From assembly GCA_964406085.1 (NCBI GenBank), contig CAYOQL010000006.1, forward strand, positions 3,657-67,656: a stretch of 64,000 bases of DNA, read 5' to 3'. The notes under the pieces were generated by a model, which saw nothing but the letters and a program-made list of their open reading frames with translations, searched no databases and was not told the DNA's origin. Below, piece by piece: positions 12,329 through 64,000 of the stretch (its first letter is position 1; each line of letters opens with the position of its first letter). The translations under genes were made by a program, and so were the position numbers. This DNA comes from an uncultured Herminiimonas sp. (lineage in GTDB: Bacteria > Pseudomonadota > Gammaproteobacteria > Burkholderiales > Burkholderiaceae_D).

Positions 12329-12412
12329 CTCATTGATGTGCTGGCTCAGCAAGAATTCTGATCAACGATTTAAAAGTAACTGGACCGGCGCTGACCGGCA
12401 AAAGGAGACATC

Positions 12413-12904
12413 ATGATTTCGTACATACAGCACCCCAGTCCGCTTGGCTTACTGCTGATTGCGGCAAGCGATGCCGGCATTTGCGGAGTGTATTTTGAAG
12501 AGCACAAACATTTCAGGGGCAAGGATAATTGGTCACTAACCGCGACGCCATCCGCTGCCCTGCATTTAAAGCACGCTGCCAAACAGCTGGACGAATATTT
12601 TGCCGCCAAGCGTACCGGGTTTGATGTAAGGCTGGACATGACCGGCACGGAATTTCAGCGTGACGTGTGGACAGCCCTGACTGCGATCCCGTTCGGCCGC
12701 AGCGTCAGTTACACGCAGCATGCAGAAGCATTGGGCAAACCCAGAGCTGTGCGCGCAGTCGGCTCGGCCATAGGAAAAAATCCGGTTTCCATCATCGTGC
12801 CCTGCCATCGCGTAATCGGTTCATCCGGCGCGGTGACCGGTTATGCCGGCGGTCTGGAACGCAAGCGCTTCTTGCTCGCGCTGGAAAATGTGGCGGTGAA
12901 CTGA
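12413..12904 (+). CDS. ogt: Methylated-DNA-protein-cysteine methyltransferase
   Basis: 163 aa with the PCHRV active-site motif. Confidence 0.9.
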   Translation: MISYIQHPSPLGLLLIAASDAGICGVYFEEHKHFRGKDNWSLTATPSAALHLKHAAKQLDEYFAAKRTGFDVRLDMTGTEFQRDVWTALTAIPFGRSVSYTQHAEALGKPRAVRAVGSAIGKNPVSIIVPCHRVIGSSGAVTGYAGGLERKRFLLALENVAVN

Positions 12905-13062
12905 ATACGATTGCGGCGCCAATAAAAGATGATTGTAAGGAGCCTGCGAATTGCCCGCCTTTCAGTCATTCCATAGTAAATCCAGCTAGCCGATATCCAC
13001 CGACCGATTTCATCAATCTGTTGCATCCACCGGTTGAAACCGTTATCCAAAGCGGATATTTA

Positions 13063-13974
13063 TTATTTTGAGTCGCTCAACATGCTGACAAAATCCAGAA
13101 ATGCGCGTGTCTTGGCGGGGACATGATGCCGCGACGGATAGAGGGCATACAACGGGAAGCGCTCATCCGGCCAATCGGGAAAGAGATTGATCAGCTTGCC
13201 ATCATCTACCAACTGCCGTACGCCGAATTCCATCGCCTGTGCGATCGCATGACCAGCCAGGCAAATGCTGTGCAATGTGCCCACGTCGTTCACCATTAAT
13301 TGCCCGCTCGTCTCAACCGTCATGCGCTTTTTACCCTTGTGAAATTCCCAGTCAAATGCTCGACCAGTCACCGGATTGCGATATTGCAGGCAAGCATGCT
13401 GACCGTTTGCCAATTCCTTCGGCGACAGTGGCCGGCCAAAGCGCTTGATGTATGCCGGTGATGCGACCGTCAAAATGCGCGTATCCATCAGCTTGCGTGC
13501 CACCAGCGTCGACACCGGCGGTGGCCCAAAACGCACGGCAAGATCGAAGCCGTCGGCAATCATGTCACCCAGCTGATCGCGAGTAATCAGCTCCAGTTTC
13601 AGTTCAGGATATTTTTTTAGAAACGCGCCGAGTTGCGGGCCCAATATCCAACGCGAAAAGAATGGATCAACTGTCACGCGCAATCGTCCGCGCACCGTGG
13701 TTGTCCCTTGCGCGGCAGACGATGCCGCTTCTTCCAATCCGGATAGCAACGGCATGATTTGCTCGTAGAATCGCCGTCCTTCGTCAGTCAATGTGACTGA
13801 TCGCGTGGTGCGATCAAACAGCCGGATTCCTAGCCGTGCCTCAAGCCGGGCAATCGAGCGACTGACGCCGGATTGCGACATATCGAGAATGTCACCGGCG
13901 CCGGCAAAGCTACCGCTATCCACAATCGCGGACAGTACGCCCATGCCATTTAAGATGCGTTCATCAAACGCCAT
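13063..13974 (-). CDS. LysR family transcriptional regulator
   Basis: 303 aa. N-terminal wHTH (GSFAGAGDILDMSQSGVSRSIARLE). Divergent from the NmrA-like gene. Confidence 0.9.
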   Translation of the reverse strand: MAFDERILNGMGVLSAIVDSGSFAGAGDILDMSQSGVSRSIARLEARLGIRLFDRTTRSVTLTDEGRRFYEQIMPLLSGLEEAASSAAQGTTTVRGRLRVTVDPFFSRWILGPQLGAFLKKYPELKLELITRDQLGDMIADGFDLAVRFGPPPVSTLVARKLMDTRILTVASPAYIKRFGRPLSPKELANGQHACLQYRNPVTGRAFDWEFHKGKKRMTVETSGQLMVNDVGTLHSICLAGHAIAQAMEFGVRQLVDDGKLINLFPDWPDERFPLYALYPSRHHVPAKTRAFLDFVSMLSDSK

Positions 13975-40562: not shown

Positions 40563-40958
40563 CTATTGTTCGCGTAATGCGCGTCGGTATTGAATCGCCT
40601 CAGCCACGTGAGCTTGACTGATCGTTGCTGCATCACCCAGGTTGGCAATCGTGCGGGCGACTTTCAAGACGCGATGATAGGCGCGCGCAGACCAGTTCAG
40701 GCGCGTCATTGCAGTGCGCAATAACTGTTCGCCTGCTTCATCTGGCTTGCAATGACTGTCCATCTCATTGCCCGTCAATAAATTGTTGTGTTTGCCTTGC
40801 CGTGAGAGTTGTCGGGTTGATGCGTGCGCAACGCGTGCTGCGACATTTTCGGAGGATTCACCGGTCGATTGTTTGAGCAAGTCTTCATGTGCGAGTGCGC
40901 CGACTTGAATTTGCATATCTATGCGATCAAGCAAGGGCCCGGAGATTTTTCCCTGATT
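40563..40958 (-). pseudogene. comM: 3' fragment of comM/yifB (Mg-chelatase-like AAA+ competence protein), truncated by island insertion
   Basis: Translation QGKISGPLLDRIDMQIQV...WSARAYHRVLKVARTIANLGDA...HVAEAIQYR is the ComM C-terminal third. Upstream of it the reading frame becomes unrelated AT-rich sequence. No N-terminal Lon/AAA+ part is present in the window. Confidence 0.85.
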
Positions 40959-41148
40959 GCCCATCCGCAAATTTAAGCTAACTACGAATGTGTACATATT
41001 CAAAGCGCTACGAGATGTCAGCTTAACTGCAAACTGACTCAAACCATCATAGTTAAACTAACTTTGAAAGTTTCCCACCCTTCGACCGTCTAGGTGAATG
41101 TATTTGGTCAAAAGGTGCCTTTTGGTGCGGATGCTCTAAGCTTCATGG

Positions 41149-41439
41149 TCATTTGTCGTCGCTCTGAGAAATTATCTTTGGAAGTTCGTGTTCAACAATG
41201 TGTCCGTTGGCGGCTGAGACCGAAAAGAACGAAATTCCTAAGCTGTCAGCAATATCCATAAATTTTCCAAGGCTTACCGTTGGCTTCCCTGCCTCAATGT
41301 CTGTAAGCGTCTGTATCGAGATTCCTGCGAGCGCGCACGCATCAACGACGCGCATTCGCGCGGCTCTACGGCCAGCACGCACTGCTGCACCAAAGTCAGA
41401 GACCGCATTAATTTTTCCGAAATGCTCTGGTTTGCTCAT
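41149..41439 (-). CDS. XRE-family HTH transcriptional regulator
   Basis: 96 aa. HTH ACALAGISIQTLTDIEAGKPTVSLGKFMDIADSLG. Confidence 0.8.
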   Translation of the reverse strand: MSKPEHFGKINAVSDFGAAVRAGRRAARMRVVDACALAGISIQTLTDIEAGKPTVSLGKFMDIADSLGISFFSVSAANGHIVEHELPKIISQSDDK

Positions 41440-41458
41440 GGGATACTCCTCGTCTAAA

Positions 41459-41527
41459 AATCTGCTATAGCAGAATTATGCCAAAAATTCAGGGCATTTT
41501 TTATAATAATTCTGCTCTGATAGAATT
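41459..41527. promoter_or_regulatory. Two related TCTGCT...AGAATT inverted-repeat sites (candidate XRE operators)
   Basis: AATCTGCTATAGCAGAATT (41459-41477, with a perfect CTGCTATAGCAG core) and AATTCTGCTCTGATAGAATT (41508-41527). Both lie between the divergent XRE and HAD-like genes. Confidence 0.45.
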
Positions 41528-41670
41528 TTTACTGCTTGAATGTTGGGGCTGAAGGCCACGAGTCATGGGGCTTAACGCTAGGCTATGTCACCCAAATTGA
41601 CATTGAAAAGCAAGCTCAGTTAGCCTTCATACAGTGCATTTCAGATGGGGAGCAGGCCAAGGTGAGTCTT

Positions 41671-42216
41671 ATGCAAACAAAGACAAAACAAGCAACGCGG
41701 CCAATTATCTTTTTAGATATGGATGACGTGCTTTGTATCGATATCAAGTATTCGAGTATAGAAGTGAAGGCGGCCTTTAAAAGCTACGAGACAAATTACC
41801 CAGGGTTGTGGGCAAATCTAGTGCACACAGATGCTCGGATGAATTTACTCGAACTACACACGGAATTTTTTCCACAATACGTATTGAGTTCAAGCTGGTC
41901 ATGCACATTTGAAGAATGGCAAATGAAGGAGGTATTTAAAAGAACTGAATTGGATTTCGTTGCGAAAAATCTGCACAAAGAATGGACAACTCCGAAAGAG
42001 CTAGGCTCTAGCAGAATTAAAGAAATTGAAAATTGGCTTGCAAAATATATGCATCCCAAACGACCAATACTGATTCTCGACGATGCTGATAGTGGTTGGA
42101 CGCTAAAAGATAGTCGTCTTGATAAATTAGGAGTAATAGTTTTCTGCGAACCAAGTATTGGATTTAACGAGCAATGTCTTATACAGGCTCGAAAAATTCT
42201 TGGTTCCCAACTTTGA
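41671..42216 (+). CDS. HAD-like small protein (resembles stand-alone HAD domains of RNA-repair proteins)
   Basis: IIFLDMDDVL (DxDxV-type motif I) and ILILDDAD. Internal ATG chosen. Family call is tentative. Confidence 0.45.
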   Translation: MQTKTKQATRPIIFLDMDDVLCIDIKYSSIEVKAAFKSYETNYPGLWANLVHTDARMNLLELHTEFFPQYVLSSSWSCTFEEWQMKEVFKRTELDFVAKNLHKEWTTPKELGSSRIKEIENWLAKYMHPKRPILILDDADSGWTLKDSRLDKLGVIVFCEPSIGFNEQCLIQARKILGSQL

Positions 42217-42364
42217 GAGTTCAATGCATTGAGTATCAACATCTGCCGGCAAGTCGCATCACAAAGTGGCCTGTCGTTCGCAATCAAAGGTTGCCATTAG
42301 CCGGGCAACTACGGACAGTCCGCTTTCCACCCGAAGTGGACGGTGGAGGTTAGGCATGATTGTC

Positions 42365-50539: not shown

Positions 50540-52555
50540 ATGGTAAAGCGAGAGATAACAGGAATCGGGAGAGATGATTTCACATTTGAAGTAGGCCAGT
50601 ATTTTAGGAGCGGGAAAACTGTATTCAGAATTACAGATGAGCATGGCACGCACTTTAAGTTGGAACACGTCATATCGATGGAATCTAAATTCATTGAGAT
50701 GACAAAGTTGATGAGCCAGTTTTTGGCAGGTGAAATTTTGCCTTGTTCTGAAAACGATTTGATTAGAGCAATTAGAAACGATGGATTTGTGGAGGATGAC
50801 CAACCGGCCACAATTAGTGGTGAAATGTCGATGTTGAGCGATGCGGCAAAAGAAGCAGGAAGACTTTCGCTTAAATATATAACGAAGTTGCAGGAGCTTG
50901 GATACTCCAGTTTGCGACCTACGCCCTTGTTAGAACTTGATATCGAGCGGCTGAGAAAAATATTCAGCGATTCGAAAGCACCAAGGCCATCAACTCTTTA
51001 TCGAATTTCATTGGATATGGAGCGACTTGGGGGAGATAGGCGCGCAGCCTACCCGAAATTCGCACAAAGAGGTGGACGTGGAAAAACAAGAATGCATCCA
51101 GTGGCACAGCAAGCGTACCAAGATAGTGTGGAGATGCTCATACGTAATCCAAAGGCGCGAATTGCGTACACAAAGCTTTCACAAGACGTATGGTTGCGAT
51201 TGGTTGAGCAAGAAGGGCAAGAAAAGGCAATGTTGTTACAGCCTTCATTGTCGACTGTAACTAGAGAAGCCAAAAAAATATTTCCCGCCTATGAAATATG
51301 CGTCAGAAACGAAGGAAAAAAAGCTGCCGACAAAAAATTCCGCAGCTGGGCGCCTAGAGATGGGGCGACCGCGCCACTTGAAGTGGTCGAATTTGATGAT
51401 AAGGATAGTAGGGTGTTTGGTATTGACGAGCGTACTGGACTACCGGCTGGAAGATTATTCGTAACAACTGGAGTGGACCAATATACCGATGTTCCATTGG
51501 GATTTTCAATTAGTGACCAACCGCGAAATACTTGGTCCGCTATCAATGCATTAGTTAACTGTGTATTGCCTAAAGACCTAACCCACCCTGATTTCTCTGA
51601 AGTTGTTACTGACCTACCTTACATGGGAAGGATGGGTATTGCCGTCTTCGACAATGCCTTATACAACCATTCGAAGATGCTGGAAGAAGCAGCGCTCGAT
51701 GTGTCTAAACACATCTTCGCGTTCGCGAAACCATATACCCCAACAGAAAAATCAAAGGTTGAAGATTTTAATGGCCAGATGGCTAAAAACTTTTTTGCAA
51801 ATCTGCCGGGATTCCTGGGAAAAAAAGATTCTCGTGATTCACTTGTTGAAGGGGTAGCTGCCGCAAATATGTCAGTAACAGATTTTAGAAAGAAATTTCT
51901 AAATTGGGCTTACAACGATTACTGCAACAAGCCAAGAGCTTCTGGGATGACGCCACGGCAATGCTGGGAGTTAGGGATGATAGGGCGTAAGCCTAGAATT
52001 CCAGGTGATGTTAATAGCGTTCATTTGGCAGCTATGTTACGTCGCAAACTTAGGTTGCGACCCGAGCTTATTCAATTTACTGGACTGATATATCAAAACC
52101 AACGTCTGGAGGTTATGCGAAGAAAAATCGGCCATAACGCTGAGGTGGACATTAGATATCATCCAGAGCGTTTGGATAGAATTTTCGTATTTGACCCATA
52201 TGCGAAAGAATGGTTTTTCGTACCGAGTGCAAATCCAGAATACACAACAAATCTCTCGCTTTATCAACATAGCCTTATAAGAAAAAAAGCACGCGAGACG
52301 GGCGCAAAAAATCCCTCTATTCCTATTCTTTTGATACATCGCGCGGAGTTGGCGAAATTGGTCTTTCAATTACGGTATTCACCAAAAGTAAAGAACAGAA
52401 AGTGGGCAAAACGTGTAATGGGCGAGAACGGTTTTGCGATTACTGAAAAGACTACCGAAATTATTGTCATGACAGAATTGGAGGCGCAGGTCGCGGAAAT
52501 TGAAGCCGTCGAAATGGACGATAGCGTTGAGGAATGGGAGTTTCCGACGATATGA
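50540..52555 (+). CDS. tnsB: TnsB-like DDE transposase (Mu/rve family)
   Basis: 671 aa. Candidate DDE residues lie in VVEFDDKD, IAVFDNALYN and SKVEDFNG. Located between the tnsA-like and AAA+ genes. Confidence 0.85.
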   Translation: MVKREITGIGRDDFTFEVGQYFRSGKTVFRITDEHGTHFKLEHVISMESKFIEMTKLMSQFLAGEILPCSENDLIRAIRNDGFVEDDQPATISGEMSMLSDAAKEAGRLSLKYITKLQELGYSSLRPTPLLELDIERLRKIFSDSKAPRPSTLYRISLDMERLGGDRRAAYPKFAQRGGRGKTRMHPVAQQAYQDSVEMLIRNPKARIAYTKLSQDVWLRLVEQEGQEKAMLLQPSLSTVTREAKKIFPAYEICVRNEGKKAADKKFRSWAPRDGATAPLEVVEFDDKDSRVFGIDERTGLPAGRLFVTTGVDQYTDVPLGFSISDQPRNTWSAINALVNCVLPKDLTHPDFSEVVTDLPYMGRMGIAVFDNALYNHSKMLEEAALDVSKHIFAFAKPYTPTEKSKVEDFNGQMAKNFFANLPGFLGKKDSRDSLVEGVAAANMSVTDFRKKFLNWAYNDYCNKPRASGMTPRQCWELGMIGRKPRIPGDVNSVHLAAMLRRKLRLRPELIQFTGLIYQNQRLEVMRRKIGHNAEVDIRYHPERLDRIFVFDPYAKEWFFVPSANPEYTTNLSLYQHSLIRKKARETGAKNPSIPILLIHRAELAKLVFQLRYSPKVKNRKWAKRVMGENGFAITEKTTEIIVMTELEAQVAEIEAVEMDDSVEEWEFPTI

Positions 52556-53568
52556 GCGAGATTTTAGACAAGCAACATTGGGTGAATGTGCCTAAGCAAT
52601 TACGTCAGCGCTACATAGCGAATGAACTCGACGTATTACATCCTCCGTTAACCCGCATCTTGAAGCAGCTGTTCCGGTCCGCGGCCGCGTGTAAGAACAA
52701 AGGAGCGGGCGATGCTGCCCTAATTATTGGTGGGAGTGGAAGCGGTAAGTCACACCTTATCGATATGGTTTTTAGACATAAAACTGCAGACCACACAGGC
52801 GACATTAGCAAGGTGCCAATAGTTAGATTTTCGGTACCCTCTGCTCCTACTCAACGAGCAATGAGCTCCCAATTGTTGCTCGCTCTCGAGCACCCGAAAA
52901 GTCGCTATGGCAATGCACAAGATATGTTTAACCGGGCAATTACTCAAATTCGTGCAGTGCAAACCGAAATTATTATGATTGATAACGTCCACGACATTCC
53001 AGAGCGCCGAAGGGCGGGAGGTGTCATGCAAATAGGAAATTGGATAAGGGATTTAATTGACGAATCACATTGCTTGGTAGCGTTGTTCGGTACACAAGCA
53101 GCAAGGCAGGTCACGGAAGCAAATGCGCAGTTAAGGCGACGCGTGCCGACTCACATGCATATCGATTATTTTGGTATTGAAGTTCAAAGAGATATTGCCA
53201 TATTCCGTCGCTTTCTTCACGAACTGGACAAGAGACTTCCTCTTGTAGAAATATCAGGCCTGAGTGACTCAGACTTGATGGTGAAACTTTACTGGGCGAC
53301 GGGAGGTATTGCCGACTATATCTTTCGCTTCGTGAGCGAAGCAGTTGATATTGCGGTAGAACGCGGACGAGAGAAACTGCTACTAGAAGATTTCGAGGCG
53401 GCCTTTAATTTAATCTTTCAAGATGCAGCTCGAGACATAAATCCATTCTCATCAGACGGCCCTCAACGTTTGCTCGACCAGACAGGCGAACCATTCCACA
53501 ACTGGTTCGATAACTCTAATCCGCGTCCTGAGAAACATCAGGTTCAGAAGGCGTCTGTGGCGAGATGA
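52552..53568 (+). CDS. tnsC: TnsC/TniB-like AAA+ ATPase
   Basis: Walker A GGSGSGKSHL and Walker B IIMIDNVHD. ATGA overlap with tnsB. Confidence 0.85.
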   Translation: MSEILDKQHWVNVPKQLRQRYIANELDVLHPPLTRILKQLFRSAAACKNKGAGDAALIIGGSGSGKSHLIDMVFRHKTADHTGDISKVPIVRFSVPSAPTQRAMSSQLLLALEHPKSRYGNAQDMFNRAITQIRAVQTEIIMIDNVHDIPERRRAGGVMQIGNWIRDLIDESHCLVALFGTQAARQVTEANAQLRRRVPTHMHIDYFGIEVQRDIAIFRRFLHELDKRLPLVEISGLSDSDLMVKLYWATGGIADYIFRFVSEAVDIAVERGREKLLLEDFEAAFNLIFQDAARDINPFSSDGPQRLLDQTGEPFHNWFDNSNPRPEKHQVQKASVAR

Positions 53569-55085
53569 GAGAAACCGAATTTCACCCCCATTCTGCTTAT
53601 GAAGAGTCGGACATGCGTACAAAACCTTGTGCCGGGAGACAACGGTCGCGGTCGCAAACGGGAGTACGCCTATTGGTGCGTTTGGATGCAAATAGCAATC
53701 CAAATCGCCAAGACCATTTGATGAGAGTTGCCGAAGCTAACGCTTTAAGCGGGATAGCAGATTTGACCATAATGCTCGGGGTCCGATATATGGCCTTGGT
53801 TTCTATGTCGTCAACTGAATTAAATGCCCTGTTAATGGGTACGCGGCTACACGCATTAGCCTCAAATGCGGTACAGGTTCGGGGACCGCAGGTGAGTCGC
53901 TATGGACTGTCGCAATATGCTCGAATATGCCCACAATGCGTAGCTGAAGATATTCCACAATCCCAAGTATTTAATTCGTCTCTACCGGTCCATTGTCCAA
54001 TTCATAAAATTCTTCCGTTGGACTTTTGCCCGGGTTGCGGGTGCAGTCTTAGCTATCTTCGGCGCACCGTTAGACGTTGCAATTGCGGCTTTCAATTCGC
54101 GACGGCTAGAAGTCAAAGCCCCCCAATGTGGCTTCAGGTTTTGTACGGCATATTTGCACCATGGCACTTGACTGGATTTGTAGAGGATGAATTCAGAATG
54201 ATTGCGTCTGAAGATTATAGAGCTGCAGAATTGATTCAAACACTTCTTGGATACAAAGAAGTGGCTTTACAACGAAGGCGCATTACTTCGAAGGATTTCA
54301 ATGAGCTTGAGAGTTTTTTTGATAATTGGAAAGAAAAATTTCGCTTAGCCATAACTCCATATTTTGAAACAAAATCGCCGGCTGGTAATTCAAAATTTTT
54401 GAAGCGACTATCCAAGCATAACGAGGTCCTAAATAAGTCCGTAATCGCGGCTGGTATAAATTTTAGTCCGGCGCAGATGTCAATAAAGGATAGTCGGAAA
54501 GAACCTGAAAAAAATGAAATAAGAGCTAGCGCCGTTCGAAAAAAAGCAAAACTAGATGCAGAAGCAATGCGCCAATACCTGTTGTCAGTAGAGTCAGTAA
54601 GCGTCACGACTTATGAAAGTGGGCGAAAATTTCAAACTATAAATTCATCAGGAGTTAAGGACGTTGAAGAGTACTTGTATGGCACGATGAGTATTCAGGA
54701 TTCGTCGACATACCTTGGATATAACGTTTCCGATTTGCGCGCGCTAGCAAAGGTAGGACTTGTAAAATCTCAAATGCTTGTAGTTAAACCTCGCTCTCCA
54801 AGGTTTCTCAAGGATTGTCTTGATGAGTGGCTTCATATCTTGGCTAGAGCGTCAGTAAAAATCACAAAGCTGGATGAAAAATTAGTTAGGCTAACGGACA
54901 TTACTGCTCACAAGGCAAGCGGAGACGTTCGAACAACATGGTTGCGATTGATGAAGAAGATTCAGGCTCGACAAATTGTTCTTTCGTTGCTGGGCTCTCC
55001 GTCACAGGCGTCGAATTTCTATGTAAATTCCCGAGACCTTGCAGAAATTGGTTTCTTAAAAATATACAACATGGCTCCCAAATAA
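53565..55085 (+). CDS. tniQ: TniQ/TnsD-like target-selector paralog 1
   Basis: 506 aa. Cys-rich segment CPQC...CPIH...CPGCGC...CNCG after a TniQ-like N-terminal region. ATGA overlap with tnsC. Confidence 0.6.
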   Translation: MRETEFHPHSAYEESDMRTKPCAGRQRSRSQTGVRLLVRLDANSNPNRQDHLMRVAEANALSGIADLTIMLGVRYMALVSMSSTELNALLMGTRLHALASNAVQVRGPQVSRYGLSQYARICPQCVAEDIPQSQVFNSSLPVHCPIHKILPLDFCPGCGCSLSYLRRTVRRCNCGFQFATARSQSPPMWLQVLYGIFAPWHLTGFVEDEFRMIASEDYRAAELIQTLLGYKEVALQRRRITSKDFNELESFFDNWKEKFRLAITPYFETKSPAGNSKFLKRLSKHNEVLNKSVIAAGINFSPAQMSIKDSRKEPEKNEIRASAVRKKAKLDAEAMRQYLLSVESVSVTTYESGRKFQTINSSGVKDVEEYLYGTMSIQDSSTYLGYNVSDLRALAKVGLVKSQMLVVKPRSPRFLKDCLDEWLHILARASVKITKLDEKLVRLTDITAHKASGDVRTTWLRLMKKIQARQIVLSLLGSPSQASNFYVNSRDLAEIGFLKIYNMAPK

Positions 55086-55095
55086 AGGCCAAGCG

Positions 55096-56655
55096 ATGTT
55101 CTTGATTCGGCCCAAACCTCTGTTATCTGAGTCGCTGTCGTCATGGAGGCAGCGAGCCGGGGTCGCTAATGGATTCCGAAGATATCCACGACCAGACGGA
55201 TTGTATTCGTGGGCCGAGCCAGACTGCTTTCCAGCGCTTAAGGAGGCCCAATGGTTACAAGACGAATATAGACTTCAACCAGAAGATGTTCGCGCCATGT
55301 GCTTGGAAGCTGTTGGCAACAATATTTCGTTCGACTTTGGTAGAACAAAAAAACTTCGCTGGGTAATTCCCTGCGCTAATCGGAAAGTATGGAATCTGGG
55401 CGGAAGCTGCTGTCCTCTTTGTCTTGAGGAAGACGAAATTCCATACTTTAGATTGTCTTGGCGTTTTGCGTTTATCACCCATTGCCCAAAACATGGATGC
55501 CCGTTAATAGAACAATGTTCTACTTGTTCGACCTTACTTTGGCCAACGAATGTTCGAAATATATCCACCAATAGGCAGTTTGATTTCCGCAATTGCCACA
55601 GTTGTGGCAGTGCGCTTGAAGCATGCGGGGATATGCATGAGCCTTTGATGTCAACATCGCGAGTACTTTGGGATTGCGCTACTACGCAGCTTGTGCCTGC
55701 ACATTTAAAGCAAGCTAAAAACTCTTGTGAGGTGTTCTCCGCGTTGTGGGCAATTAGTCAGCTGCTACTTCGTAAAAATGCGAGTGGAATTTGGAAGTTT
55801 TTCCCAGATGATTTCTCAAAGTTCGATAGGGGTAAATTCAATTTTGGCGAAGGAATAAATACAATCGAGTTACTTCCAAATGAAGCTAGGCGAAGCGTCA
55901 TTGATGCTGCTTATTGGATGATTTCAGAATGGCCTAATCATTTTGTATTGATATCCCAAAAGGCGCATTTGTCACGTTATCTTTTTTCGCCTATTTGGCT
56001 GAGTCAGCCGCAATGGATGACTAATGTTATTGAAGAAAACTTATCCATCAGAACAATCGGCATTACAAGTCTCCAAGTGCACGCTGCAATTGACTCAATA
56101 AAAGATGCGGGAAAGCCTGTTTCAAAGATGGCGGTTCGCCGGGTCCTTGGCGTCTCAGAATCGTTGGCCATCAATGAAATATTATCGCAGCGCCGCACAG
56201 GTTCGTTGGGCGAGTTAAAGAGACTGTGTGGAATGTTTGAGCATAGGTTAATGACAGTTTCAGATTCGCGCGACCAGAAAGCTAGCCTGATTCGGGATTA
56301 TCTGATTTTCTTGGTCAGCGCCCTCCTTAACCAAAAAATTGAAAAAGTCTGTCTGTTGACTAAGGATTCTGTCGCTACGTTGCTTTCGACAGAATCTTTG
56401 CATGGAGTGAGCTGCACGCCACTTTATAAGCTCATCAGTCATCGCGCCAATCAGTTAAATGACATTTATCTTGAGCAATACCGGTTATTGAATCCGGATT
56501 TTTTGATTTGCGATGGTCGAATGTTTTTGGCTCGTAACGGCGACGTACTTGCTGGGCATACAGTCAGAGACCGAATTACAAAAATGATGAAATCAGGATT
56601 CCCCCCCGACCTATGGAAAAGTGCGGACGTTTTCTTAGGCGTAATCGGGAAATAA
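55096..56655 (+). CDS. tniQ: TniQ/TnsD-like target-selector paralog 2
   Basis: 519 aa. N-terminus PKPLLSESLSSWRQRAGVANG and CCPLCL...CPKHGC...CSTC are the classical TniQ pattern. Confidence 0.8.
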   Translation: MFLIRPKPLLSESLSSWRQRAGVANGFRRYPRPDGLYSWAEPDCFPALKEAQWLQDEYRLQPEDVRAMCLEAVGNNISFDFGRTKKLRWVIPCANRKVWNLGGSCCPLCLEEDEIPYFRLSWRFAFITHCPKHGCPLIEQCSTCSTLLWPTNVRNISTNRQFDFRNCHSCGSALEACGDMHEPLMSTSRVLWDCATTQLVPAHLKQAKNSCEVFSALWAISQLLLRKNASGIWKFFPDDFSKFDRGKFNFGEGINTIELLPNEARRSVIDAAYWMISEWPNHFVLISQKAHLSRYLFSPIWLSQPQWMTNVIEENLSIRTIGITSLQVHAAIDSIKDAGKPVSKMAVRRVLGVSESLAINEILSQRRTGSLGELKRLCGMFEHRLMTVSDSRDQKASLIRDYLIFLVSALLNQKIEKVCLLTKDSVATLLSTESLHGVSCTPLYKLISHRANQLNDIYLEQYRLLNPDFLICDGRMFLARNGDVLAGHTVRDRITKMMKSGFPPDLWKSADVFLGVIGK

Positions 56656-56724
56656 TTAACGCCTCTCAAATCACAGGGATTATTAAAGATTAGTAAGAGA
56701 TTTACTAATTGAAAGAATGGCAAT

Positions 56725-57228
56725 ATGGATAGGTACTTACTCTCTTTAGAGCTGAATGCTGCAGCAATGAAGCAATGCATCAACGCACGGCAAGTCTTCA
56801 CTGCATATGAGACGGCGTTGAAGCATGGGTGGCATTCAATTGCTGGGCTAAGAGAAGCGCTTAGGAAACAGGAACATCTTAACGCTGAATTCAATGTAGG
56901 CAACGTCGATTTAAACACATTTGAATGGCTGCAGCAGGAGGCGGCCGTAAATAGAATTGTAATTGGTGAGCATTCCTTTTATGCGTACGAGGCCAATGCT
57001 GGTGTCCGGCTTAAGTATGAGTGGGAGCAAACGAGCCTAGAGACGGTGCAAGACTATTCTTTGTTACCTTATGAGGCGGTAGTAGTCGCAGTAGACGGCC
57101 GAATGGCACGTATGCGAACAATGCAGCCGCACGATTATGTGAATGCAGGTTATCCATTAGCCGATATGGTCAGGCGAATGATTGCCGACAATAGAATCTA
57201 CGTTAGCTATGGCGACTCCAATGAGTAG
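56725..57228 (+). CDS. Hypothetical protein
   Basis: 167-aa ORF in island-type composition. No family recognised. Confidence 0.4.
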   Translation: MDRYLLSLELNAAAMKQCINARQVFTAYETALKHGWHSIAGLREALRKQEHLNAEFNVGNVDLNTFEWLQQEAAVNRIVIGEHSFYAYEANAGVRLKYEWEQTSLETVQDYSLLPYEAVVVAVDGRMARMRTMQPHDYVNAGYPLADMVRRMIADNRIYVSYGDSNE

Positions 57229-57360
57229 ACGAGCTAAATCGGCTATCGCTAAGCTGTATTTGCTCTAAATTACTTGCTGCATTTTATCTTTCGCTCGTCT
57301 ACCGATTAAACCAATTTGACTTGATTTCACTTCTCTAATCGACAGCCTAGTAACAATTTA

Positions 57361-57463
57361 TGTGACGATTGTTGTTACGATTATTGTGACGATTAAATTA
57401 TGGTCTTTAAGAGGAGAACTGGAGATTTTACTTACTGATTTTGTAACGATTTATGTGACGATT
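57361..57463 (+). repeat. Five direct copies of TGTNACGATT in two 12-bp-phased clusters
   Basis: Copies start at 57361, 57373, 57385, 57442 and 57454 (TGTGACGATT, TGTTACGATT, TGTGACGATT, TGTAACGATT, TGTGACGATT). Confidence 0.9.
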
Positions 57464-57486
57464 ATTTAGTGAGCGCGGAATACAAA

Positions 57487-58557
57487 TCACCCTAGGCGAA
57501 TCAAGAAATCAGACACCTTCAGATGTGTATAACGCTTTAGCATAATGAGCGTCTTATGGCCTGTAATCGCCGCGACTTCCATTTCCTTAAAACCCTTTTC
57601 AAAAAGCCTTGTTGTTGCCTCATGTCTTAGGTCGTGAAACCTAAAATCCTCAATGCCACAAGCTCTACAGGCGTTCTTAAAATCCGTTGTAATCACATCC
57701 GCATTCCTATCGACAATCGAGATTTTAGACGTCCGCGGCATTGCCTTTAGAGCCAGGATTGCACGTGTAGATAATGGCACCTCGCGAGGCTCTCCATTTT
57801 TTGTGTCACGTAAATAAATCAACCTGGTGTCAAGATTGACATCGCCATACTCCAAGCTGGCTATCTCGCCGCGACGCATGGCAGTCTCAGTGGCGAGAAT
57901 GATGAGGTTTTTCAAACGAACGTCACCTACCTTGTCACAATAAGCAAGAAGACGAAGTTCTTCATCTTGGCGAAATCTGCGGTCACGCCCTCTGGCAATC
58001 TTTGGCTTACGGAACATGCTAGTGGGGCTGACGAGCTCCTCATATCCCCAATCTGTCCGTGCGACTTTGTATAGATGAGAGATAAGTGCGAACTCCTTTT
58101 GGAGTGTGCTGCCACTGATACCTTCGCGCAGGCGGTTATCACGATGAAGAGCAAGATGATGTCCTCGTATCGCTAGCAAGGGGAACGCTGCAAGGGGATG
58201 GCGCTGCCAGCGCCTTATGTAGTTTCTTTCAATTGCGGCCCCCTTCTTTTCGGGTGTCACTTCATCCAGATATCGATTTAGCGATTCATATAGTGTGGGT
58301 GTTTCATACGCCAAGTTAGCGAGGCAGGGAATTTTAAAATCCTCGCTCGCAGTCGGTGCCGGCGGTTGTTTTGCTGAATCAGCTAAGCGCAGCCTTCTCT
58401 CAATGGCAGATTGAATTTGGAAAATAAGATTCTCTTGAAAAGAAGCCCATTCTTCGGCCTCCTTCCTTGTTGAGAATGTCTTTGTTAACCGAGGGCAGTC
58501 GGGGAGAGAGATGCGTGCGCGGAATCGGCCTGGATAACGACTGTCGATAGATGCCAT
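57487..58557 (-). CDS. Tyrosine site-specific integrase
   Basis: ATETAMRRGE (Arg I), HDLRHEATT (H-x-x-R) and GHKTLIMLKRYTH (catalytic Tyr region). Internal start MASIDSRY. Confidence 0.85.
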   Translation of the reverse strand: MASIDSRYPGRFRARISLPDCPRLTKTFSTRKEAEEWASFQENLIFQIQSAIERRLRLADSAKQPPAPTASEDFKIPCLANLAYETPTLYESLNRYLDEVTPEKKGAAIERNYIRRWQRHPLAAFPLLAIRGHHLALHRDNRLREGISGSTLQKEFALISHLYKVARTDWGYEELVSPTSMFRKPKIARGRDRRFRQDEELRLLAYCDKVGDVRLKNLIILATETAMRRGEIASLEYGDVNLDTRLIYLRDTKNGEPREVPLSTRAILALKAMPRTSKISIVDRNADVITTDFKNACRACGIEDFRFHDLRHEATTRLFEKGFKEMEVAAITGHKTLIMLKRYTHLKVSDFLIRLG

Positions 58558-58654
58558 ATTTTTATTAACTGAATGTGGGGAGTTTAAAAATAATTGAATA
58601 CCTATTGCGCATTCAAGGCATGTACACGATGTCTGCAACTATTTTTAACAAAGC

Positions 58655-58672
58655 ATCCCATATCTATGGGAT
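58655..58672. promoter_or_regulatory. ATCCCATA-TC-TATGGGAT perfect palindrome, copy 3
   Basis: Located in the divergent integrase/helicase intergenic region. Confidence 0.55.
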
Positions 58673-58769
58673 AGGCCAACACTAGCCACGTGATACTTTG
58701 TGGCAACGAAAAAACTAATGACAAGGCCTCCTTGCGACGATTTCGCTAGAAGGTTAAAGGGAACACGTA

Positions 58770-61499
58770 GTGCAACATCTTTCAAAACCAACGGCTTTAG
58801 GTAAATTCTTTACATCGACTACCGACTGGACTCTTACATTCGACGAAAATCGCTTTGTTGTACAGACAAAGGGAAAGAAGCTGGAGGGGGCAACCCTTCT
58901 CCTTGAAAATCTTCGCGTTAAGCGGGGAATTTTATGGTCAACCATCATTATTCCTATTCAAGGCCAGCAAGAAATCCCGCTGGGCGGTCTTTCTAATAGC
59001 GCAGCAAAGAAACTGTTAGCTGAAATCACTACCGTTACTAATACAGTTCGTTATCGGATGAGAGTCGCGGCTCTTATTCAGGATTTCAGTAATGCGATTA
59101 AGCCAGTCGTTGACTGGTCGAGCAAAGCTTTGGCCTCGTGCAAAGTCCAACTGAAAGTTAAGGGTTGGCTCACGCATGAATTTAAGCTGGAGTTAAACAG
59201 CGTAAAGCCGACGGAACTTGCAAGCCTCTTGTCTGAACCTGAAGTTAGGCAGCATCTTATAAAACAGCCGAAAACGACACAGGATGCAGTAAATTTTTGG
59301 ACCCAAAACTTCGATGTTATTGCTGATGGCTTCAATGAGCTTCACGTAACTAAGCAGAAAGAAATACTTAAAGACTTCTTCGATAAAGTTGAAAAATCAC
59401 CACTCACAGAAGAACAACTAAAGGCGGTGGTGTGCTTTGACAATCGTCTATTGTTGGTCGCATCAGCAGGGTCCGGCAAGACCTCCACAATGGTTGCCAA
59501 GGCGGCATACGCCCTTAAGCAAGGCTACTTCGCCCCTGAACAGATGTTGTTGCTGGCATTTAATAACGATGCCGCTGCTGAGTTGCGAGAGCGCATTAAA
59601 GCCAGACTAGTGCCACTGGGTCTGCCAGCCGAGAAAGTCGTTGCTAAAACATTTCATGCCTTTGGTCTTGACATCATTGGCGTAGCTACGGGAAAACGTC
59701 CATCGTTAGCTCCGTGGGTCGAGAACGGCAGGGACATTGAAACGCTACTCGGCATTGTTGATGAGCTTAAAGACAAAGATGCGGCTTTCCGAACAAATTG
59801 GGATATGTTTCGAATAGTTATTGGCCAGGACTTACCCAAGTTTGGTAGAGAAAATGATTCGCCAGATTCATGGAATAAAGAGACGAGTACCGGCGGATTT
59901 TGGTCCCTTAATAATGACGTTGTAAAAAGTAGAGGTGAGCTTCTGATAGCCAACTGGCTTTTCTACAATGGCGTTAATTATAAGTATGAAGCGCCTTACC
60001 AGCATGACACGGCCGACTCCGCGTATAGACAATACAAACCTGATTTCTATTTCCCCGACATCGATGCGTATCTTGAGCATTGGGCGGTAGACGAAAACGG
60101 GCAGCCTCCGAAAGAGTTCGTTGGATACAAAGAAGGGATGGCCTGGAAAAAGGAATTACACGCACGTAATGGCACTCGGCTCCTTGAGACCACGATGGCC
60201 GAATTATGGTCAGGCAAAGCATTCATTTATCTCGCGCAGGAGCTGCCTAAGCTGGGCATTACTTTGGACCCTAATCCGGAACGGCCGGTACCTGGCCGAA
60301 AGCCAATTGAAAATCCGCGACTAGCCAGAACGTTCCGTTCATTCCTCACACACGCCAAAAGTAATCGCCTGACGGCTGAGAACTTACGCGGTCGTTTAAA
60401 TGCTGGAATCGCCGGACAGTTCCGATTTCGGCATGCAATGTTCCTGAGCCTTTTTCAAAGAATATGGGATGGTTGGGAAGAAAAGCTCAAGGCGGAAAAA
60501 AGTATAGATTTCGACGATATGTTGAATCTGGCAAGCGATTGCGTGGCGCAAGGGCAATGGCATAGCCCGTTCGAATTAATCATGGTCGATGAATTCCAAG
60601 ATGCGAGTCAGGCCAGGGCTAGATTGGTATCGGAATTAGTTAAGGGGCCTGGTAAATGTTTATTTGCAGTGGGGGATGACTGGCAGAGCATTAACAGATT
60701 TGCCGGAGCTGATTTAGCAGTAATGACAGAATTTACTAAGACATTCGGACATGCAGTAACGATGAAATTGGAAACAACTTTCAGATGTCCTCAGTCCTTA
60801 TGTGACATCAGCAGTAATTTCGTTCAAAAAAATCCAAAACAAATCAAGAAAAAGGTTCGGGCATATGGCGCAGATGTTTCAGCGCCGGTACATGTCATGC
60901 GCGTTGATGATGAAAACAAAATCAGGTCTGCTCTTAGCCAACGTATAAACGAAATAATATCTACTACGGCAATTAGAGGTCGAAAAATTCAGATTTACAT
61001 CCTTGGTCGCTATAACAAGGAAAATATCTACGTACCTCCCATTTACGACATGGATAAGGCGAACGTGGAGTTTATGACTGTGCACTCTTCTAAGGGGCTT
61101 GAGGCAGATTACATTTTGCTGCCCCGTATGACGTCTGAAATACTTGGTTTTCCTAGCCGCATTGTGGATGACCCTGTTATGCAGTTGGCTATGCCTGGCG
61201 GGGATGATTTCGAGAGCGCTGAGGAAAGGCGTCTGTTCTATGTGGCGCTGACACGTGCTCGAGAAAATGTAACGCTAGTTACGCTTTTGCATAAGGAGTC
61301 GCCATTTATCGTAGAACTGGCTAGAGACTGCAAGCTTCAAATTCAAGATTTTGGAGCGCCTGTGAATCAGAGTATTCGGACGGAAGTTTGTCCGACGTGT
61401 CAGAAGGGGTTCTTAGTTGGAAAAAAAGGGAAGTATGGAAAGTTTCTAGGATGCAGTCAGTTTCCTCGATGTAGGCATACTCAAAAAACAATTCAATGA
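58770..61499 (+). CDS. Helicase IV (HelD)-like UvrD-family helicase with an inserted PD-(D/E)xK-like segment and a C-terminal topoisomerase-type zinc ribbon
   Basis: 909 aa. The N-terminal region and FFDKVEKSPLTEEQLKAVV...LLVASAGSGKTS...LLLAFNNDAAAELRERI run parallel to E. coli HelD as I recall it. VDEFQD and FYVALTRAR are also present. The insert is SRGELLIANWL...YKPDFYFP...AYLEHW. The tail is CPTCQKG...GCSQFPRC. Confidence 0.8.
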   Translation: MQHLSKPTALGKFFTSTTDWTLTFDENRFVVQTKGKKLEGATLLLENLRVKRGILWSTIIIPIQGQQEIPLGGLSNSAAKKLLAEITTVTNTVRYRMRVAALIQDFSNAIKPVVDWSSKALASCKVQLKVKGWLTHEFKLELNSVKPTELASLLSEPEVRQHLIKQPKTTQDAVNFWTQNFDVIADGFNELHVTKQKEILKDFFDKVEKSPLTEEQLKAVVCFDNRLLLVASAGSGKTSTMVAKAAYALKQGYFAPEQMLLLAFNNDAAAELRERIKARLVPLGLPAEKVVAKTFHAFGLDIIGVATGKRPSLAPWVENGRDIETLLGIVDELKDKDAAFRTNWDMFRIVIGQDLPKFGRENDSPDSWNKETSTGGFWSLNNDVVKSRGELLIANWLFYNGVNYKYEAPYQHDTADSAYRQYKPDFYFPDIDAYLEHWAVDENGQPPKEFVGYKEGMAWKKELHARNGTRLLETTMAELWSGKAFIYLAQELPKLGITLDPNPERPVPGRKPIENPRLARTFRSFLTHAKSNRLTAENLRGRLNAGIAGQFRFRHAMFLSLFQRIWDGWEEKLKAEKSIDFDDMLNLASDCVAQGQWHSPFELIMVDEFQDASQARARLVSELVKGPGKCLFAVGDDWQSINRFAGADLAVMTEFTKTFGHAVTMKLETTFRCPQSLCDISSNFVQKNPKQIKKKVRAYGADVSAPVHVMRVDDENKIRSALSQRINEIISTTAIRGRKIQIYILGRYNKENIYVPPIYDMDKANVEFMTVHSSKGLEADYILLPRMTSEILGFPSRIVDDPVMQLAMPGGDDFESAEERRLFYVALTRARENVTLVTLLHKESPFIVELARDCKLQIQDFGAPVNQSIRTEVCPTCQKGFLVGKKGKYGKFLGCSQFPRCRHTQKTIQ

Positions 61500-61555
61500 A
61501 ATGCATACTCAGGCTATTGGCTAGAGTAATAAAGGCGGCGTTGCTAGTTGGGCGC

Positions 61556-61572
61556 ATCCCATAAATATGGGA
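61556..61572. promoter_or_regulatory. ATCCCATA-AA-TATGGGA palindrome, copy 4
   Basis: 12 bp upstream of the TTG start of the DUF4297-like gene. Confidence 0.55.
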
Positions 61573-61583
61573 GCCTGTAAAAA

Positions 61584-62807
61584 TTGCAATCGAGTACTAT
61601 CTTGCAACGATTGCATACACTACGACCTGTGAAACTTAAAAATACGCAACTTACTTTAAATGAGTTGTTAGCAGACATACCTGTTGATGACAATTCAGGA
61701 CAAATCGCCATACAAGGGTTTGAGTATCAGCATTGGTATGCGACATTGCTAATCACTGAGCTTCTTGCATTAGACGAGGACTTCGCCATTGGTGTGGAAG
61801 TTAAGGAGGATATTTGTGTTATCGATTCCGCCGATGCTCCTACCAAGGTTAAATTTGTTCAAGTCAAAACAAATGAAAAATCTGTTGCTTGGACCTTCAA
61901 TGCCCTTCATGCGAAAGGCAAAAAGCTGAAGGACGGTACGCATGCGCCATCAATCCTGTCAAAGTTGTTTCGGCGGCGTATTGATTTTGATGGGCATGAC
62001 AATGAACTGTGGTTTGTGACGAATTCAAGTATCAAAGTCTCTGATACAGAGATGATGACGACCGTTCACGACATGCCTCTCAACAATTTGGAGGTGGCGC
62101 AGCAAGCTGCTTTACGTAAGTCATTGGCTACCGAGTTAATGGTTGATGAATCAATGATTGATTTATCGAACGCTCGCCTCCACACATCTCATCTTCCATT
62201 AGGAAATCAAAAGTTTTATATAAGTGGAAAACTTAGCGCCTTGGTTGAAGAGGGGCATTTGGATATCGAAATATCCAAACCATCTGTGGCCGCAACTTTA
62301 CTTGCTTCTGAAGTTCGGTCGAAAGCAGCTAATACGGGACATTCGAAAAATTTCGAAGACCTAAAGGCAAGTCGATTAATAACCAGAAACAATGTTTTAC
62401 AGACCTTGTTGCAACTAGCAAACCATAAGTCTATTGCTACTGTTTTCAATGACGCACTGCAAGAGCTTAAAACGGAAGCGTTCAACTATCCGTTACGAAA
62501 AAAAATGCAGGCAGAAAAAAATCGTATTCTTCTCGCTGCCTCGGACAGAACAAACGATGAGTTCAAACGCCAGATAGAAACGCTTTCTAAGTGTTATTCA
62601 ATAATTCAATCAAGCCATTCCCACGACTGTAAAAGCTTTGGGGATTTAATTAAGGCAGTCTCCGATAAAGCCATGACTGAACAATCCGACGTTTTCTCAA
62701 CGGTAGAAATGCCCTATCTATATGCACTCACAATGGTGGTAATACATGGAATCGAAATCGACGTACTCAATATTGCGCCTTGTGCGCAATCTAAGGACGC
62801 GCAATGA
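61584..62807 (+). CDS. DUF4297/Cap4-type nuclease domain protein (LmuA-like)
   Basis: 407 aa. IQGFEYQHWY, VEVKEDICVID and VKFVQVKT fit the DUF4297 PD-(D/E)xK N-terminal pattern. The TTG start is uncertain. Confidence 0.6.
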   Translation: MQSSTILQRLHTLRPVKLKNTQLTLNELLADIPVDDNSGQIAIQGFEYQHWYATLLITELLALDEDFAIGVEVKEDICVIDSADAPTKVKFVQVKTNEKSVAWTFNALHAKGKKLKDGTHAPSILSKLFRRRIDFDGHDNELWFVTNSSIKVSDTEMMTTVHDMPLNNLEVAQQAALRKSLATELMVDESMIDLSNARLHTSHLPLGNQKFYISGKLSALVEEGHLDIEISKPSVAATLLASEVRSKAANTGHSKNFEDLKASRLITRNNVLQTLLQLANHKSIATVFNDALQELKTEAFNYPLRKKMQAEKNRILLAASDRTNDEFKRQIETLSKCYSIIQSSHSHDCKSFGDLIKAVSDKAMTEQSDVFSTVEMPYLYALTMVVIHGIEIDVLNIAPCAQSKDAQ

Positions 62808-64000
62808 CTCGGCGCGTGACCTTCAAAACTCTTTGGCTCGTATCCGCAGTGGAACAGAAAGCAAAGAAGCAAACATTCTCCAGCGGAAAAACGATTCTTC
62901 ACGGGAAGAACGGGACAGGTAAATCTCGAATTATCAAGAATTTATTTTGGACTTTAGGCTGTAGTCCTGCAAAGCATATGCCGCCAGGTTGGGACCCGGA
63001 TACCATTGGCGCGCTCGAATTCACCTTTGATGGCAAAACGTTTGTCGTGGTACGAAAGGCGAAAACATTAGGCCTATTTGACGACCAAGGGTTACTCATT
63101 GAAGCAGTCGATAACTTAACTGCCTGGGATAGGTTTATTGCTCATAAATTTGGATACATGTTGATGCTGCAACGGCCAGGAACCACAAAACAAAGTAGTG
63201 CTGGTATAGATTATCTGACATTGCCCTTTTACATTGACCAAGACGGAAGCTGGGGCGAGCACTGGGATACATACACTAACCTTGCTCAATTTTCAAAATG
63301 GCAAAAACCAGTATTTGAGGCGTTCATTGGTCTACGGCCCAATGCCTATTTCACGGCTTATCAGAAGTGCCAGCTCGTGCGCAGCCAACGAACTGAGCTA
63401 CAAAAGCAACTCAACACGGAAGCCAATGCTTTTCAGCGCGTGCGAGAACTTCTGCCAAAGAATGTGCCGGTGATTGACTCGGAAACTTTTGAGCAAGATT
63501 TGGTGGGTCTTGGTTTGGAAGCAAAGTCATTGCAGTCAAAGCAAAATGAACTTCGCGCGCGAGTAATCACTGCAACTGGAATGAAAGAGAAGGTGATTGC
63601 TGAGCTAGCTTTGGCGACATCTTCTCTGAAAGAAGTTTCAGATGACCTTGGCTACCTTAGTGGGATTGATGATGCTCTGGAATGCCCGACATGCGGAACC
63701 GTGCATACGGAGTCCTTTCATGGAAGATTAAACTTAGCTCAAGATGTGGATGCCTTGGTGGCGTTAATCGCTGAGCTTCAGAATGAAAAAGGAAAAATTA
63801 CTTTTCAGTTGCAAAAGCTTAAGACTGAATATGTAGAAGTTGTTGGATATATTCAGGCACTCAACGAACGAATGACTGCGGTGCAGTCGAATCTTAAGGC
63901 CGAGAAACTTCTATTCGAAGCTCATAGCGTTCAGACTCTGCACAATGCATTTGCAGCAGTCACTGCCGACTTAGTTAAAGACATTGCTGAGCTTGAGTAT
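62803..64000 (+). CDS. SMC/ABC-like ATPase with coiled coil and CxxC hook-like motif (LmuB-like); 3' end outside window and absent from the ORF track
   Basis: My translation from the ATG at 62803 (ATGA overlap with the previous gene) stays open to base 64000. It reads MTRRVTFKTLWL...ILHGKNGTGKSRIIKNLFWTLGC (Walker A), then long heptad-like QKQL/ELQ segments and ECPTCGTVH. Confidence 0.65.

Follow-up and report, generated by a model that had tools for sequence, protein, structure and literature searches.

An apparent composite defence island in comM of Herminiimonas is very probably a single Tn7-like transposon with cargo on both sides of its transposition operon

In an uncultured Herminiimonas sp. 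(GCA_964406085.1; genome G000, ~3 Mb, a draft assembly of 107 contigs), the transformation gene comM is broken by a block of defence genes, transposition genes and an integrase, which raises the question of whether this island is a stack of elements at one attachment (att) site or a single mobile element. The window analysed is a stretch of 64,000 nucleotides (G000:C6:3657-67656, contig CAYOQL010000006.1), and contig C6 continues past its end. A preliminary description had divided the block, said to start at 40959 and to measure at least 23 kb, into three modules: single-gene cassettes with Gabija, the tns genes, and repeats with an integrase, a helicase and a Lamassu-like pair. By analogy with Tn7, it expected the tnsA-proximal right end immediately to the left of 49.1 kb, leaving an 8-kb defence block between the att site and the transposon, and it offered two explanations, namely tandem accretion of a tns-less element or cargo placed between the right end and tnsA. 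Our analysis confirmed the observation itself and supported its interpretation in part. With high probability, the 41-64.7 kb block is one cut-and-paste Tn7-like transposon and not a set of stacked separate elements.

Boundaries of the element

comM is split at window position 40957, and its C-terminal fragment runs on the minus strand up to the break. The block extends from 40958 to window-equivalent position 64713, a length of 23,756 bp that bears out the earlier minimum size and corrects the earlier start by only 1 bp. Its final 713 bp lie beyond the window end, and the N-terminal part of comM (380 codons) resumes 713 bp after the window end on contig C6. When both flanks were compared by blastn with the intact comM of the genus relative G009, the left match stopped at 40957 and the right match restarted at 64715, with the two flanks overlapping by 4-5 bp on the G009 empty site. 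A perfect 5-bp target-site duplication (TSD), CTGAT, is present at 40953-40957 and 64714-64718; the left junction reads TTTCC-CTGAT followed by TGCCCATCCGCAAATTTAAGC, and the right junction reads CTTTAACTTTGACGATGGGCA followed by CTGAT-AACG. The block is bordered by one pair of imperfect terminal inverted repeats beginning TGCCCATC, with inverted tips that read TGCCCATCCGCAAATTTAAGC on the left and, as the reverse complement, TGCCCATCGTCAAAGTTAAAG on the right. GC content is 42-50% inside the block vs 51-57% in its flanks. The boundary features are as follows, scored with a position weight matrix (PWM) of TnsB sites built from ten terminal sites of five complete family members.

40563..40957, minus strand: 3' part of comM (ComM residues ~381 to end), Pfam Mg_chelatase_C E 1e-30 and blastn against G009
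40958..41080, plus strand: L-type (dispersed) end, terminal TnsB site TGCCCATCCGCAAATTTAAGC and a direct-orientation site ~85 bp further in, tip PWM 19.8-20.1
Window-equivalent 64650-64713 (G000:C6:68306-68369, L001:1437-1500): R-type (compact) end, terminal site PWM 22.3-22.8
Window-equivalent 64719 to ~65847, minus strand: 5' part of comM, beyond the window end

The R-type end also holds an inverted site (PWM 21.1-21.6), which begins at its outer edge 64 bp in from the tip, and the 190 bp that remain after the stop codon of the last cargo gene, lmuB, at 64522 are non-coding end sequence.

Across G000, PWM scores of ~20 or more were reached only at 40962(+), 64655(+) and 64693(-). The first and last are the two tips and 64655(+) is the inner site of the right end, whereas the top match inside the element scored 14.7 and fell within tniQ2. 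No end-like TnsB site was detected by PWM in the 380-bp gap before the operon (48.76-49.14 kb), where the preliminary description had expected the transposon to end, or in the 260-bp gap after the operon (57.2-57.5 kb). A search for internal comM fragments found comM-derived sequence in the two flanks only, and a genome-wide search yielded no further copy of the ends. Because real ends lie at 40958 and 64713 with one 5-bp duplication, the 8-kb block is inside the transposon and does not, as had been proposed, separate it from the att site.

The transposition core

A conserved core in the order HTH-tnsA-tnsB-tnsC-tniQ-tniQ occupies the centre of the element (~49.05-56.65 kb), entirely on the plus strand.

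49139..49609, plus strand: XRE-type HTH regulator, first conserved core gene, Pfam HTH_3
49587..50522, plus strand: TnsA, PD-ExK endonuclease, 311 aa, assigned by fold and motif
50540..52555, plus strand: TnsB transposase, Mu-transpos_C, Tn6677 TnsB 9y7b E 1e-29
52534..53568, plus strand: TnsC/TniB AAA+ regulator, Pfam TniB E 7e-22
53565..55085, plus strand: TniQ-domain target selector 1, 506 aa, weak Pfam TniQ
55096..56655, plus strand: TniQ/TnsD-like target selector 2, 519 aa, last conserved core gene, Pfam TniQ E 1e-16

Sequence searches with TnsA against Pfam, NCBIfam and PDB returned no match, and the protein was identified by fold search only. The four best PDB matches of its AlphaFold2 model (pLDDT 77) in Foldseek were all Tn7 TnsA, with E values of 1e-6 to 1.5e-4, among them 1t0f and 1f1z (E 1e-6, probability 1.0) and the TnsABCD transpososome 9bw1. 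Residues D153, E169 and K171 are invariant across 10 homologues, and the presence of this endonuclease implies cut-and-paste transposition. Both selectors carry a TniQ zinc-finger segment: that of selector 1, which is kept in relatives, aligns with that of selector 2, and selector 2 matches TniQ and TnsD structures in PDB and is 42% identical to its counterpart in G016 (H. aquatilis). Homologues of the HTH gene lie upstream of tnsA in G016, G659, G687, L033, L036, L038, L039, L040 and L043.

The element thus has the characters of a Tn7-like transposon, comprising a DDE transposase (TnsB), TnsA, a TnsC/TniB ATPase, a TniQ/TnsD selector, terminal inverted repeats, several asymmetrically arranged TnsB sites and a 5-bp target duplication. 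All five tns open reading frames and both ends are intact, and judged by sequence the element is probably active in transposition.

Relatives and the comM codon-380 site

A search of 5.8 billion proteins returned ~70 relatives of TnsB, most of them metagenomic, with the closest homologues (P0002-P0015) being 50-78% identical. Among genome contigs only H. aquatilis was returned as a related locus, an order-wide sample of 400 genomes contained no close TnsB, and a search of viral contigs and plasmids for relatives found nothing. Besides G000, four complete relatives were read: G016, with a TnsB 54% identical and an element of 26.4 kb, and G659, G727 and G687, of the same family, with TnsB proteins 39-41% identical in elements of 27.6-37.8 kb.

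All five complete elements, from different species, are inserted in comM at codon 380, where the empty site CGT TAT CAG GGA AAA encodes R-Y-Q/G-K-ISGPLLDR. G016, G727 and G687 use the same 5 bp as G000, with the TSD ATCAG in G016 and G727 and ACCAG in G687, and G659 is inserted ~2-3 bp away. Since five elements that have diverged this far (TnsB 39-54%) all occupy codon 380, we regard this position as a site-specific att, and its recognition by a selector is predicted. The preliminary description was sound in naming comM as the att site and in its three-module account; its gene inventory was likewise reproduced using open reading frames, Pfam, NCBIfam and PADLOC.

G000 and G016 have only the core genes (35-62% amino-acid identity) and the end sequences in common, with nucleotide homology running from ~85 bp upstream of the HTH gene to the end of tniQ2. 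The two bays of G016 (10 kb and 9 kb) hold genes entirely different from those of G000, the 10-kb bay on the tnsA side carrying umuDC and genes for DUF4238, a PLD nuclease and a SIR2 protein of 1236 aa. HTH-tnsA of G659 is separated from the end by 6 kb of cargo that encodes AbiTii, HAD_SAK_2, a caspase-like protein and a TIR effector of the Pycsar type, and in the metagenomic loci L036, L038 and L039 comM is likewise followed by an end, ~6 kb and HTH-tnsA. Another three loci (L033, L034 and L037) have 7-9 kb upstream of tnsA with no end detectable by a PWM that could miss diverged ends, and tnsA lies near an end only in G727 (1 kb) and G687 (0.3 kb). Most relatives have cargo in this position, between tnsA and an end, which makes such cargo a family trait rather than a foreign wedge between att and transposon.

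Two frame changes were seen in the G016 locus. Its tnsA (L020:12164-13083) is matched in two frames, 12164-12313 and 12319-13071, and the 5' part of its comM (L020:613-1790) shifts frame near residue 312; these may be real frameshifts or assembly indel errors.

End types and orientation

Two end architectures are conserved across the family. The compact, R-type end consists of a terminal site and an inverted inner site, with 63-64 bp between the tip and the outer edge of the inner site. The inner site is part of a palindromic double site. This end type is found at 64.7 kb in G000, on the C-side of G016, on the N-side of G659 and in L038 and L039. The dispersed, L-type end has a terminal site and a site in the same orientation ~81 bp in; the architecture at G000 40958 recurs on the N-side of G016 and on the C-side of G659 and G687. 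In Tn7, the right end (Tn7R) has four packed TnsB sites and the left end (Tn7L) three spread sites, and by this analogy the compact end would correspond to Tn7R.

In G659, G727, G687, L038 and L039, the R-type end lies against the 5' part of comM and on the tnsA side, the latter matching Tn7; L036 shares this layout (comM N-terminal part, end, ~6 kb, HTH-tnsA), the inverted site not having been scored there. In G000 the R-type end at 64.7 kb also lies against the 5' part of comM, but 15 kb separate it from tnsA, and the operon reads in its direction. The interior of G016 is arranged as in G000, with a dispersed end, 10 kb, HTH-tnsA to tniQ2, 9 kb and a compact end. The expectation that the right end would be proximal to tnsA thus failed for G000, where the end nearest to tnsA is 8.2 kb away and L-type by its TnsB-site architecture. 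The suggestion of cargo between an end and tnsA fared better and is favoured by the single pair of ends and by the relatives, although the end concerned is of the L type.

Comparison of five complete and three partial elements suggests that these layouts are most economically explained by a single old event in the shared ancestor of G000 and G016 that inverted the interior with respect to the ends, an account that we consider fairly probable. Inverted repeats of at least 9 bp around the tns core, which might have caused such an inversion, were not found beyond chance expectation.

The G016 element (L020 and L021, G016:C1:1208500-1248499; junctions at joined positions 1746/1747 and 28154/28155) shares its exact 5-bp target with G000 but is reversed with respect to G000, G659, G727 and G687, so that its L-type end abuts the 5' part of comM. 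For Tn7 and Tn6022, insertion occurs in a single orientation (PMC11014353). The single case of G016 fits a rare reverse insertion and a relaxed polarity equally well. The fuller proposition, that the whole interior is flipped relative to asymmetric ends in the G000/G016 sub-lineage and that insertion can occur in either orientation at the same 5 bp, appears unlikely at present. If it were true, end asymmetry may control orientation less strictly, or the interior may be prone to inversion through the palindromic double TnsB sites just inside each end; the element would then have an intrinsic means of rearranging itself and gaining a second cargo bay. The apparently flipped core and the reverse-inserted relative offer a natural setting in which to examine how the ends of Tn7-like elements set insertion polarity.

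One element or several

The core is flanked by two hypervariable cargo bays. The features of the second (56725 to window-equivalent 64522) are as follows.

56725-57228, plus strand: small NTP_transf_8-like open reading frame (Pfam)
57350-57466: six phased 12-bp repeats, GTNACGATTNTT
57487-58638, minus strand: tyrosine integrase (Pfam/NCBIfam)
58770-61499, plus strand: helicase IV-like protein, 909 aa, with a topoisomerase-type Zn ribbon (Pfam/NCBIfam)
61584-62807, plus strand: LmuA, Cap4 nuclease domain (PADLOC E 2e-54)
62804 to 64522, plus strand: LmuB, SMC-like ATPase (PADLOC E 1e-85), stop at contig C6 / L001:1309

The alternative that survives best is that bay 2 is a tyrosine-recombinase integrative element that integrated just downstream of the tns operon, a reading compatible with a single enclosing transposon and one that we regard as possible, though on balance doubtful. 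The integrase keeps its R, HxxR, H and Y catalytic residues, and the six direct repeats, of which the contig has no other copies, end ~20 bp from its stop codon. An 82% identical integrase occurs in G007 in an unrelated genomic context and a homologue is absent from G016; the G007 copy identifies the integrase as mobile cargo rather than part of the transposon core. However, no direct repeats of at least 9 bp join 57229-57500 with 64515-64660, so that an attL/attR pair was not recognised; the 12-bp repeats are missing beside the G007 homologue, and nothing marks the far limit of such an element. That the repeats are arm-type integrase sites and that this module delivered the helicase and Lamassu genes is a comparably tentative proposal. 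The repeats were also considered as TnsB sites marking a transposon end and were rejected, being in a single orientation, at a single place and unrelated to the terminal motif.

Tandem accretion, in which a tns-less defence element, a tns element and an integrase-bearing element would have entered the comM att site in two or three successive insertions and fused into one island after their internal ends were deleted or decayed, is in our judgement very unlikely. The block does fall into three parts that differ in strand bias and GC, and there is a precedent in Tn6022 islands in comM that contain multiple ends of both types, left and right, along with nested duplications (PMC11014353). In addition, a lone 10-mer TnsB-site core, TCAAAGTTAA, lies at 49077-49086 (minus strand), 53 bp upstream of the HTH start, as the sole copy in the window. 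This copy could be an autoregulatory site, a relic or a chance match, and chance is the probable explanation: the expectation is 0.11 per window, 10 of 100 shuffles reached one match, no terminal site lies beside it, and it is absent at the equivalent position in G016. A tandem array would show more than one end pair or more than one target duplication, but the PWM scans and the flanks revealed a single pair of ends and a single perfect TSD around the whole block in G000 itself, with internal sites of at most 14.7 compared with 20-22 at the true ends and no comM fragment inside. The preliminary description had itself named one pair of ends enclosing the entire block as a pattern that would refute a composite origin, and G000 shows this pattern. 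Relatives share the central core and two bays with unrelated cargo, which argues for cargo turnover inside one element rather than stacking.

Vertical inheritance of the block as core genome, or its origin as an assembly artefact, can be dismissed with near certainty, since comM is uninterrupted across the site in 15 of 25 genus relatives, which makes the block accessory, and since GC is 5-10 points lower inside it, a precise 5-bp duplication and terminal inverted repeats delimit it, and a single 116.5-kb contig carries the element uninterrupted together with both halves of comM. This comparison with empty comM genes and the mapping of TnsB-site ends follow checks suggested in the preliminary description.

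Several points nevertheless weigh against our interpretation. The PWM may miss ends that have decayed beyond detection, and the integrase and six phased repeats are located right where the core gives way to bay 2, which means that bay 2 at least could be a separately arrived integrative element. The inversion depends on few elements and on the assumption that compact spacing denotes the functional right end. Furthermore, the assembly is a draft, although element and flanks lie on one contig, and the mobility of the element is presumed from its genes and ends. A single transposon still accounts best for the ends, the duplication and the architecture of the relatives.

Defence genes and other cargo

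Bay 1 (41149..48759) lies between the L-type end and the core, with all genes on the minus strand except the HAD gene.

41149-41439, minus strand: HTH (Pfam)
41536-42216, plus strand: HAD_SAK_2 (Pfam)
42365-43498, minus strand: PIN_12 protein, 377 aa (Pfam)
43682-44380, minus strand: ThsB-like TIR, full-length match to the PADLOC ThsB model (1.7e-117)
44924-45442, minus strand: second TIR (Pfam)
45627-47123, minus strand: GajB, UvrD-like (PADLOC E 6.5e-185)
47041-48759, minus strand: GajA, ATPase-TOPRIM (PADLOC E 6e-235, full length)

GajA and the adjacent GajB, whose genes overlap at 47041-47123, form a Gabija system. In bay 2, LmuA and LmuB form a Lamassu system in which the optional LmuC has no room before the transposon end. 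A Thoeris system was not recognised, as no neighbour of the ThsB-like TIR matched the ThsA model, the neighbour being the PIN_12 protein. The two TIR proteins and the PIN_12 protein, whose C-terminal half has no domain call, lie at 42365-45442, and TIR-TIR-PIN_12 could be a Thoeris-like set with a different effector.

Several smaller recurrences were observed in the cargo. The palindrome ATCCCATnnATATGGGA occurs four times between genes in both bays (window 44483, 44804, 58657 and 61558), only ~4 times elsewhere in the genome (G000 C12:64604, C16:14057, C40:18858 and C10:78719) and once beside the G007 integrase homologue (L052:12503), and could be an operator common to accessory genes. In bay 1, the 13-mer GCCGATAGCGGAC is found at three cassette borders in succession (43566-43578, 44522-44534 and 44869-44881), and its other two genomic copies (window 14964 and G000 C7:48837) each follow a short GC hairpin, which hints at a host-type intergenic repeat and at assembly of the bay 1 cassettes in a Herminiimonas-like genome. 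HAD_SAK_2, found in bay 1, recurs directly upstream of HTH-tnsA in G659 (L023:16087-16509) and, 48% identical, in G007 (L052:3829-4356), 8 kb from the integrase homologue.

Proposed mechanism and implications

By analogy with Tn7, we propose that TnsA and TnsB would cut both strands at the two asymmetric ends carrying TnsB sites, and that TnsC would link TnsA/TnsB and the ends to a TniQ/TnsD-like selector, which may recognise the conserved comM sequence around codon 380 (RYQ/GKISGPLLDR). Insertion would produce the 5-bp duplication and inactivate comM. After the proposed interior inversion in the ancestor of G000 and G016, both elements presumably kept transposing.

An apparent composite defence island would in that case be a single vehicle, probably still mobile, that moves Gabija, Lamassu, TIR/PIN genes and a helicase jointly and knocks out the transformation gene comM. 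A second Tn7-type att site in comM is thereby defined, at codon 380, for a family with two TniQ selectors and no TnsF. Pipelines that assume tnsA to abut an end would mis-draw elements with cargo on both sides of the operon.

Comparison with known systems

The G000 element resembles Tn7 in its protein set (TnsA, TnsB, TnsC and a selector of the TnsD/TniQ type) and in duplicating 5 bp of its target. As in Tn7, each of the two asymmetric ends has several TnsB sites, closely packed at one end and spread out at the other, the insertion position is fixed and adjoins a highly conserved coding motif, and the cargo is unrelated to transposition. The G000 element differs in its target, which lies inside comM and is inactivated, whereas Tn7 uses attTn7 at glmS, and in its tips, TGC/TGG...GCA/CCA in the G000 family vs TGT...ACA in Tn7. 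In contrast to Tn7, each G000 end has TnsB sites in both orientations, two TniQ-domain selectors are present with no TnsE, an XRE-type HTH gene precedes tnsA, and the tns operon lies in the middle of the element between two blocks of cargo and points to the compact end.

Tn6022/AbaR elements of Acinetobacter are likewise Tn7-like, insert in comM with a 5-bp duplication and carry large accessory islands (PMC11014353, PMC10293859), and some Tn6022-type islands include an accessory tyrosine recombinase. Tn6022 depends on TniQ together with TnsF, a tyrosine recombinase that has been inactivated, and inserts at the Walker B region with the TSD ACCGC (PMC11014353, PMC10293859); Tn6022/AbaR and the tyrosine-recombinase 'Tsy' elements both read this region of comM via TnsF (PMC10293859; PMC11014353). 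The G000 family, by contrast, has a core with two TniQ-domain proteins and without TnsF, the second selector having a TniQ zinc-finger domain, and inserts at codon 380, ~70 codons downstream of Walker B: the ComM break is at residue 380 and Walker B (VLFLDE) at ~residue 305. The only tyrosine recombinase in the G000 element keeps its catalytic residues, lies on the opposite strand among the cargo and is absent from G016. Tn6022 also differs from the family in its TGT/ACA ends and fixed orientation, and TnsB of G000 is only ~20% identical to that of a Tn6022-like element in G005. The G000 element is not a member of Tn6022.

The G005 element (L056, G005:C6:66300-86299) sits at ~ComM residue 290 and encodes TnsA, TnsB, TniB, TniQ and a 476-aa open reading frame. 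At ~ComM residue 312, next to Walker B, G001 (L054, G001:C1:2234800-2249800) carries an element of 12 kb that encodes two or more tyrosine recombinases, and G022 (L055, G022:C53:39000-58500) has a 17-kb element at the same place in comM with an open reading frame layout matching that of G001. In this genus, comM is entered at three positions by three kinds of mobile element.

In the survey by Benler et al. 2021 (PMC8649781), boundaries of Tn7-like elements are arrays of TnsB sites and cargo is dominated by defence and other mobile-element genes; the G000 cargo of Gabija, Lamassu and TIR genes and an integrase is of this kind. The passages of the survey that were searched describe neither a comM codon-380 family nor a core flipped relative to its ends. 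Tips other than TGT/ACA and bidirectional TnsB sites within one end are known from the type I-D CRISPR-associated transposon McCAST (PMC9881144), which unlike the G000 element is CRISPR-guided and cyanobacterial, with a TnsAB fusion and a different target (PMC9881144). Overall, the G000 element represents an ordinary kind of transposon with an unusual internal layout.

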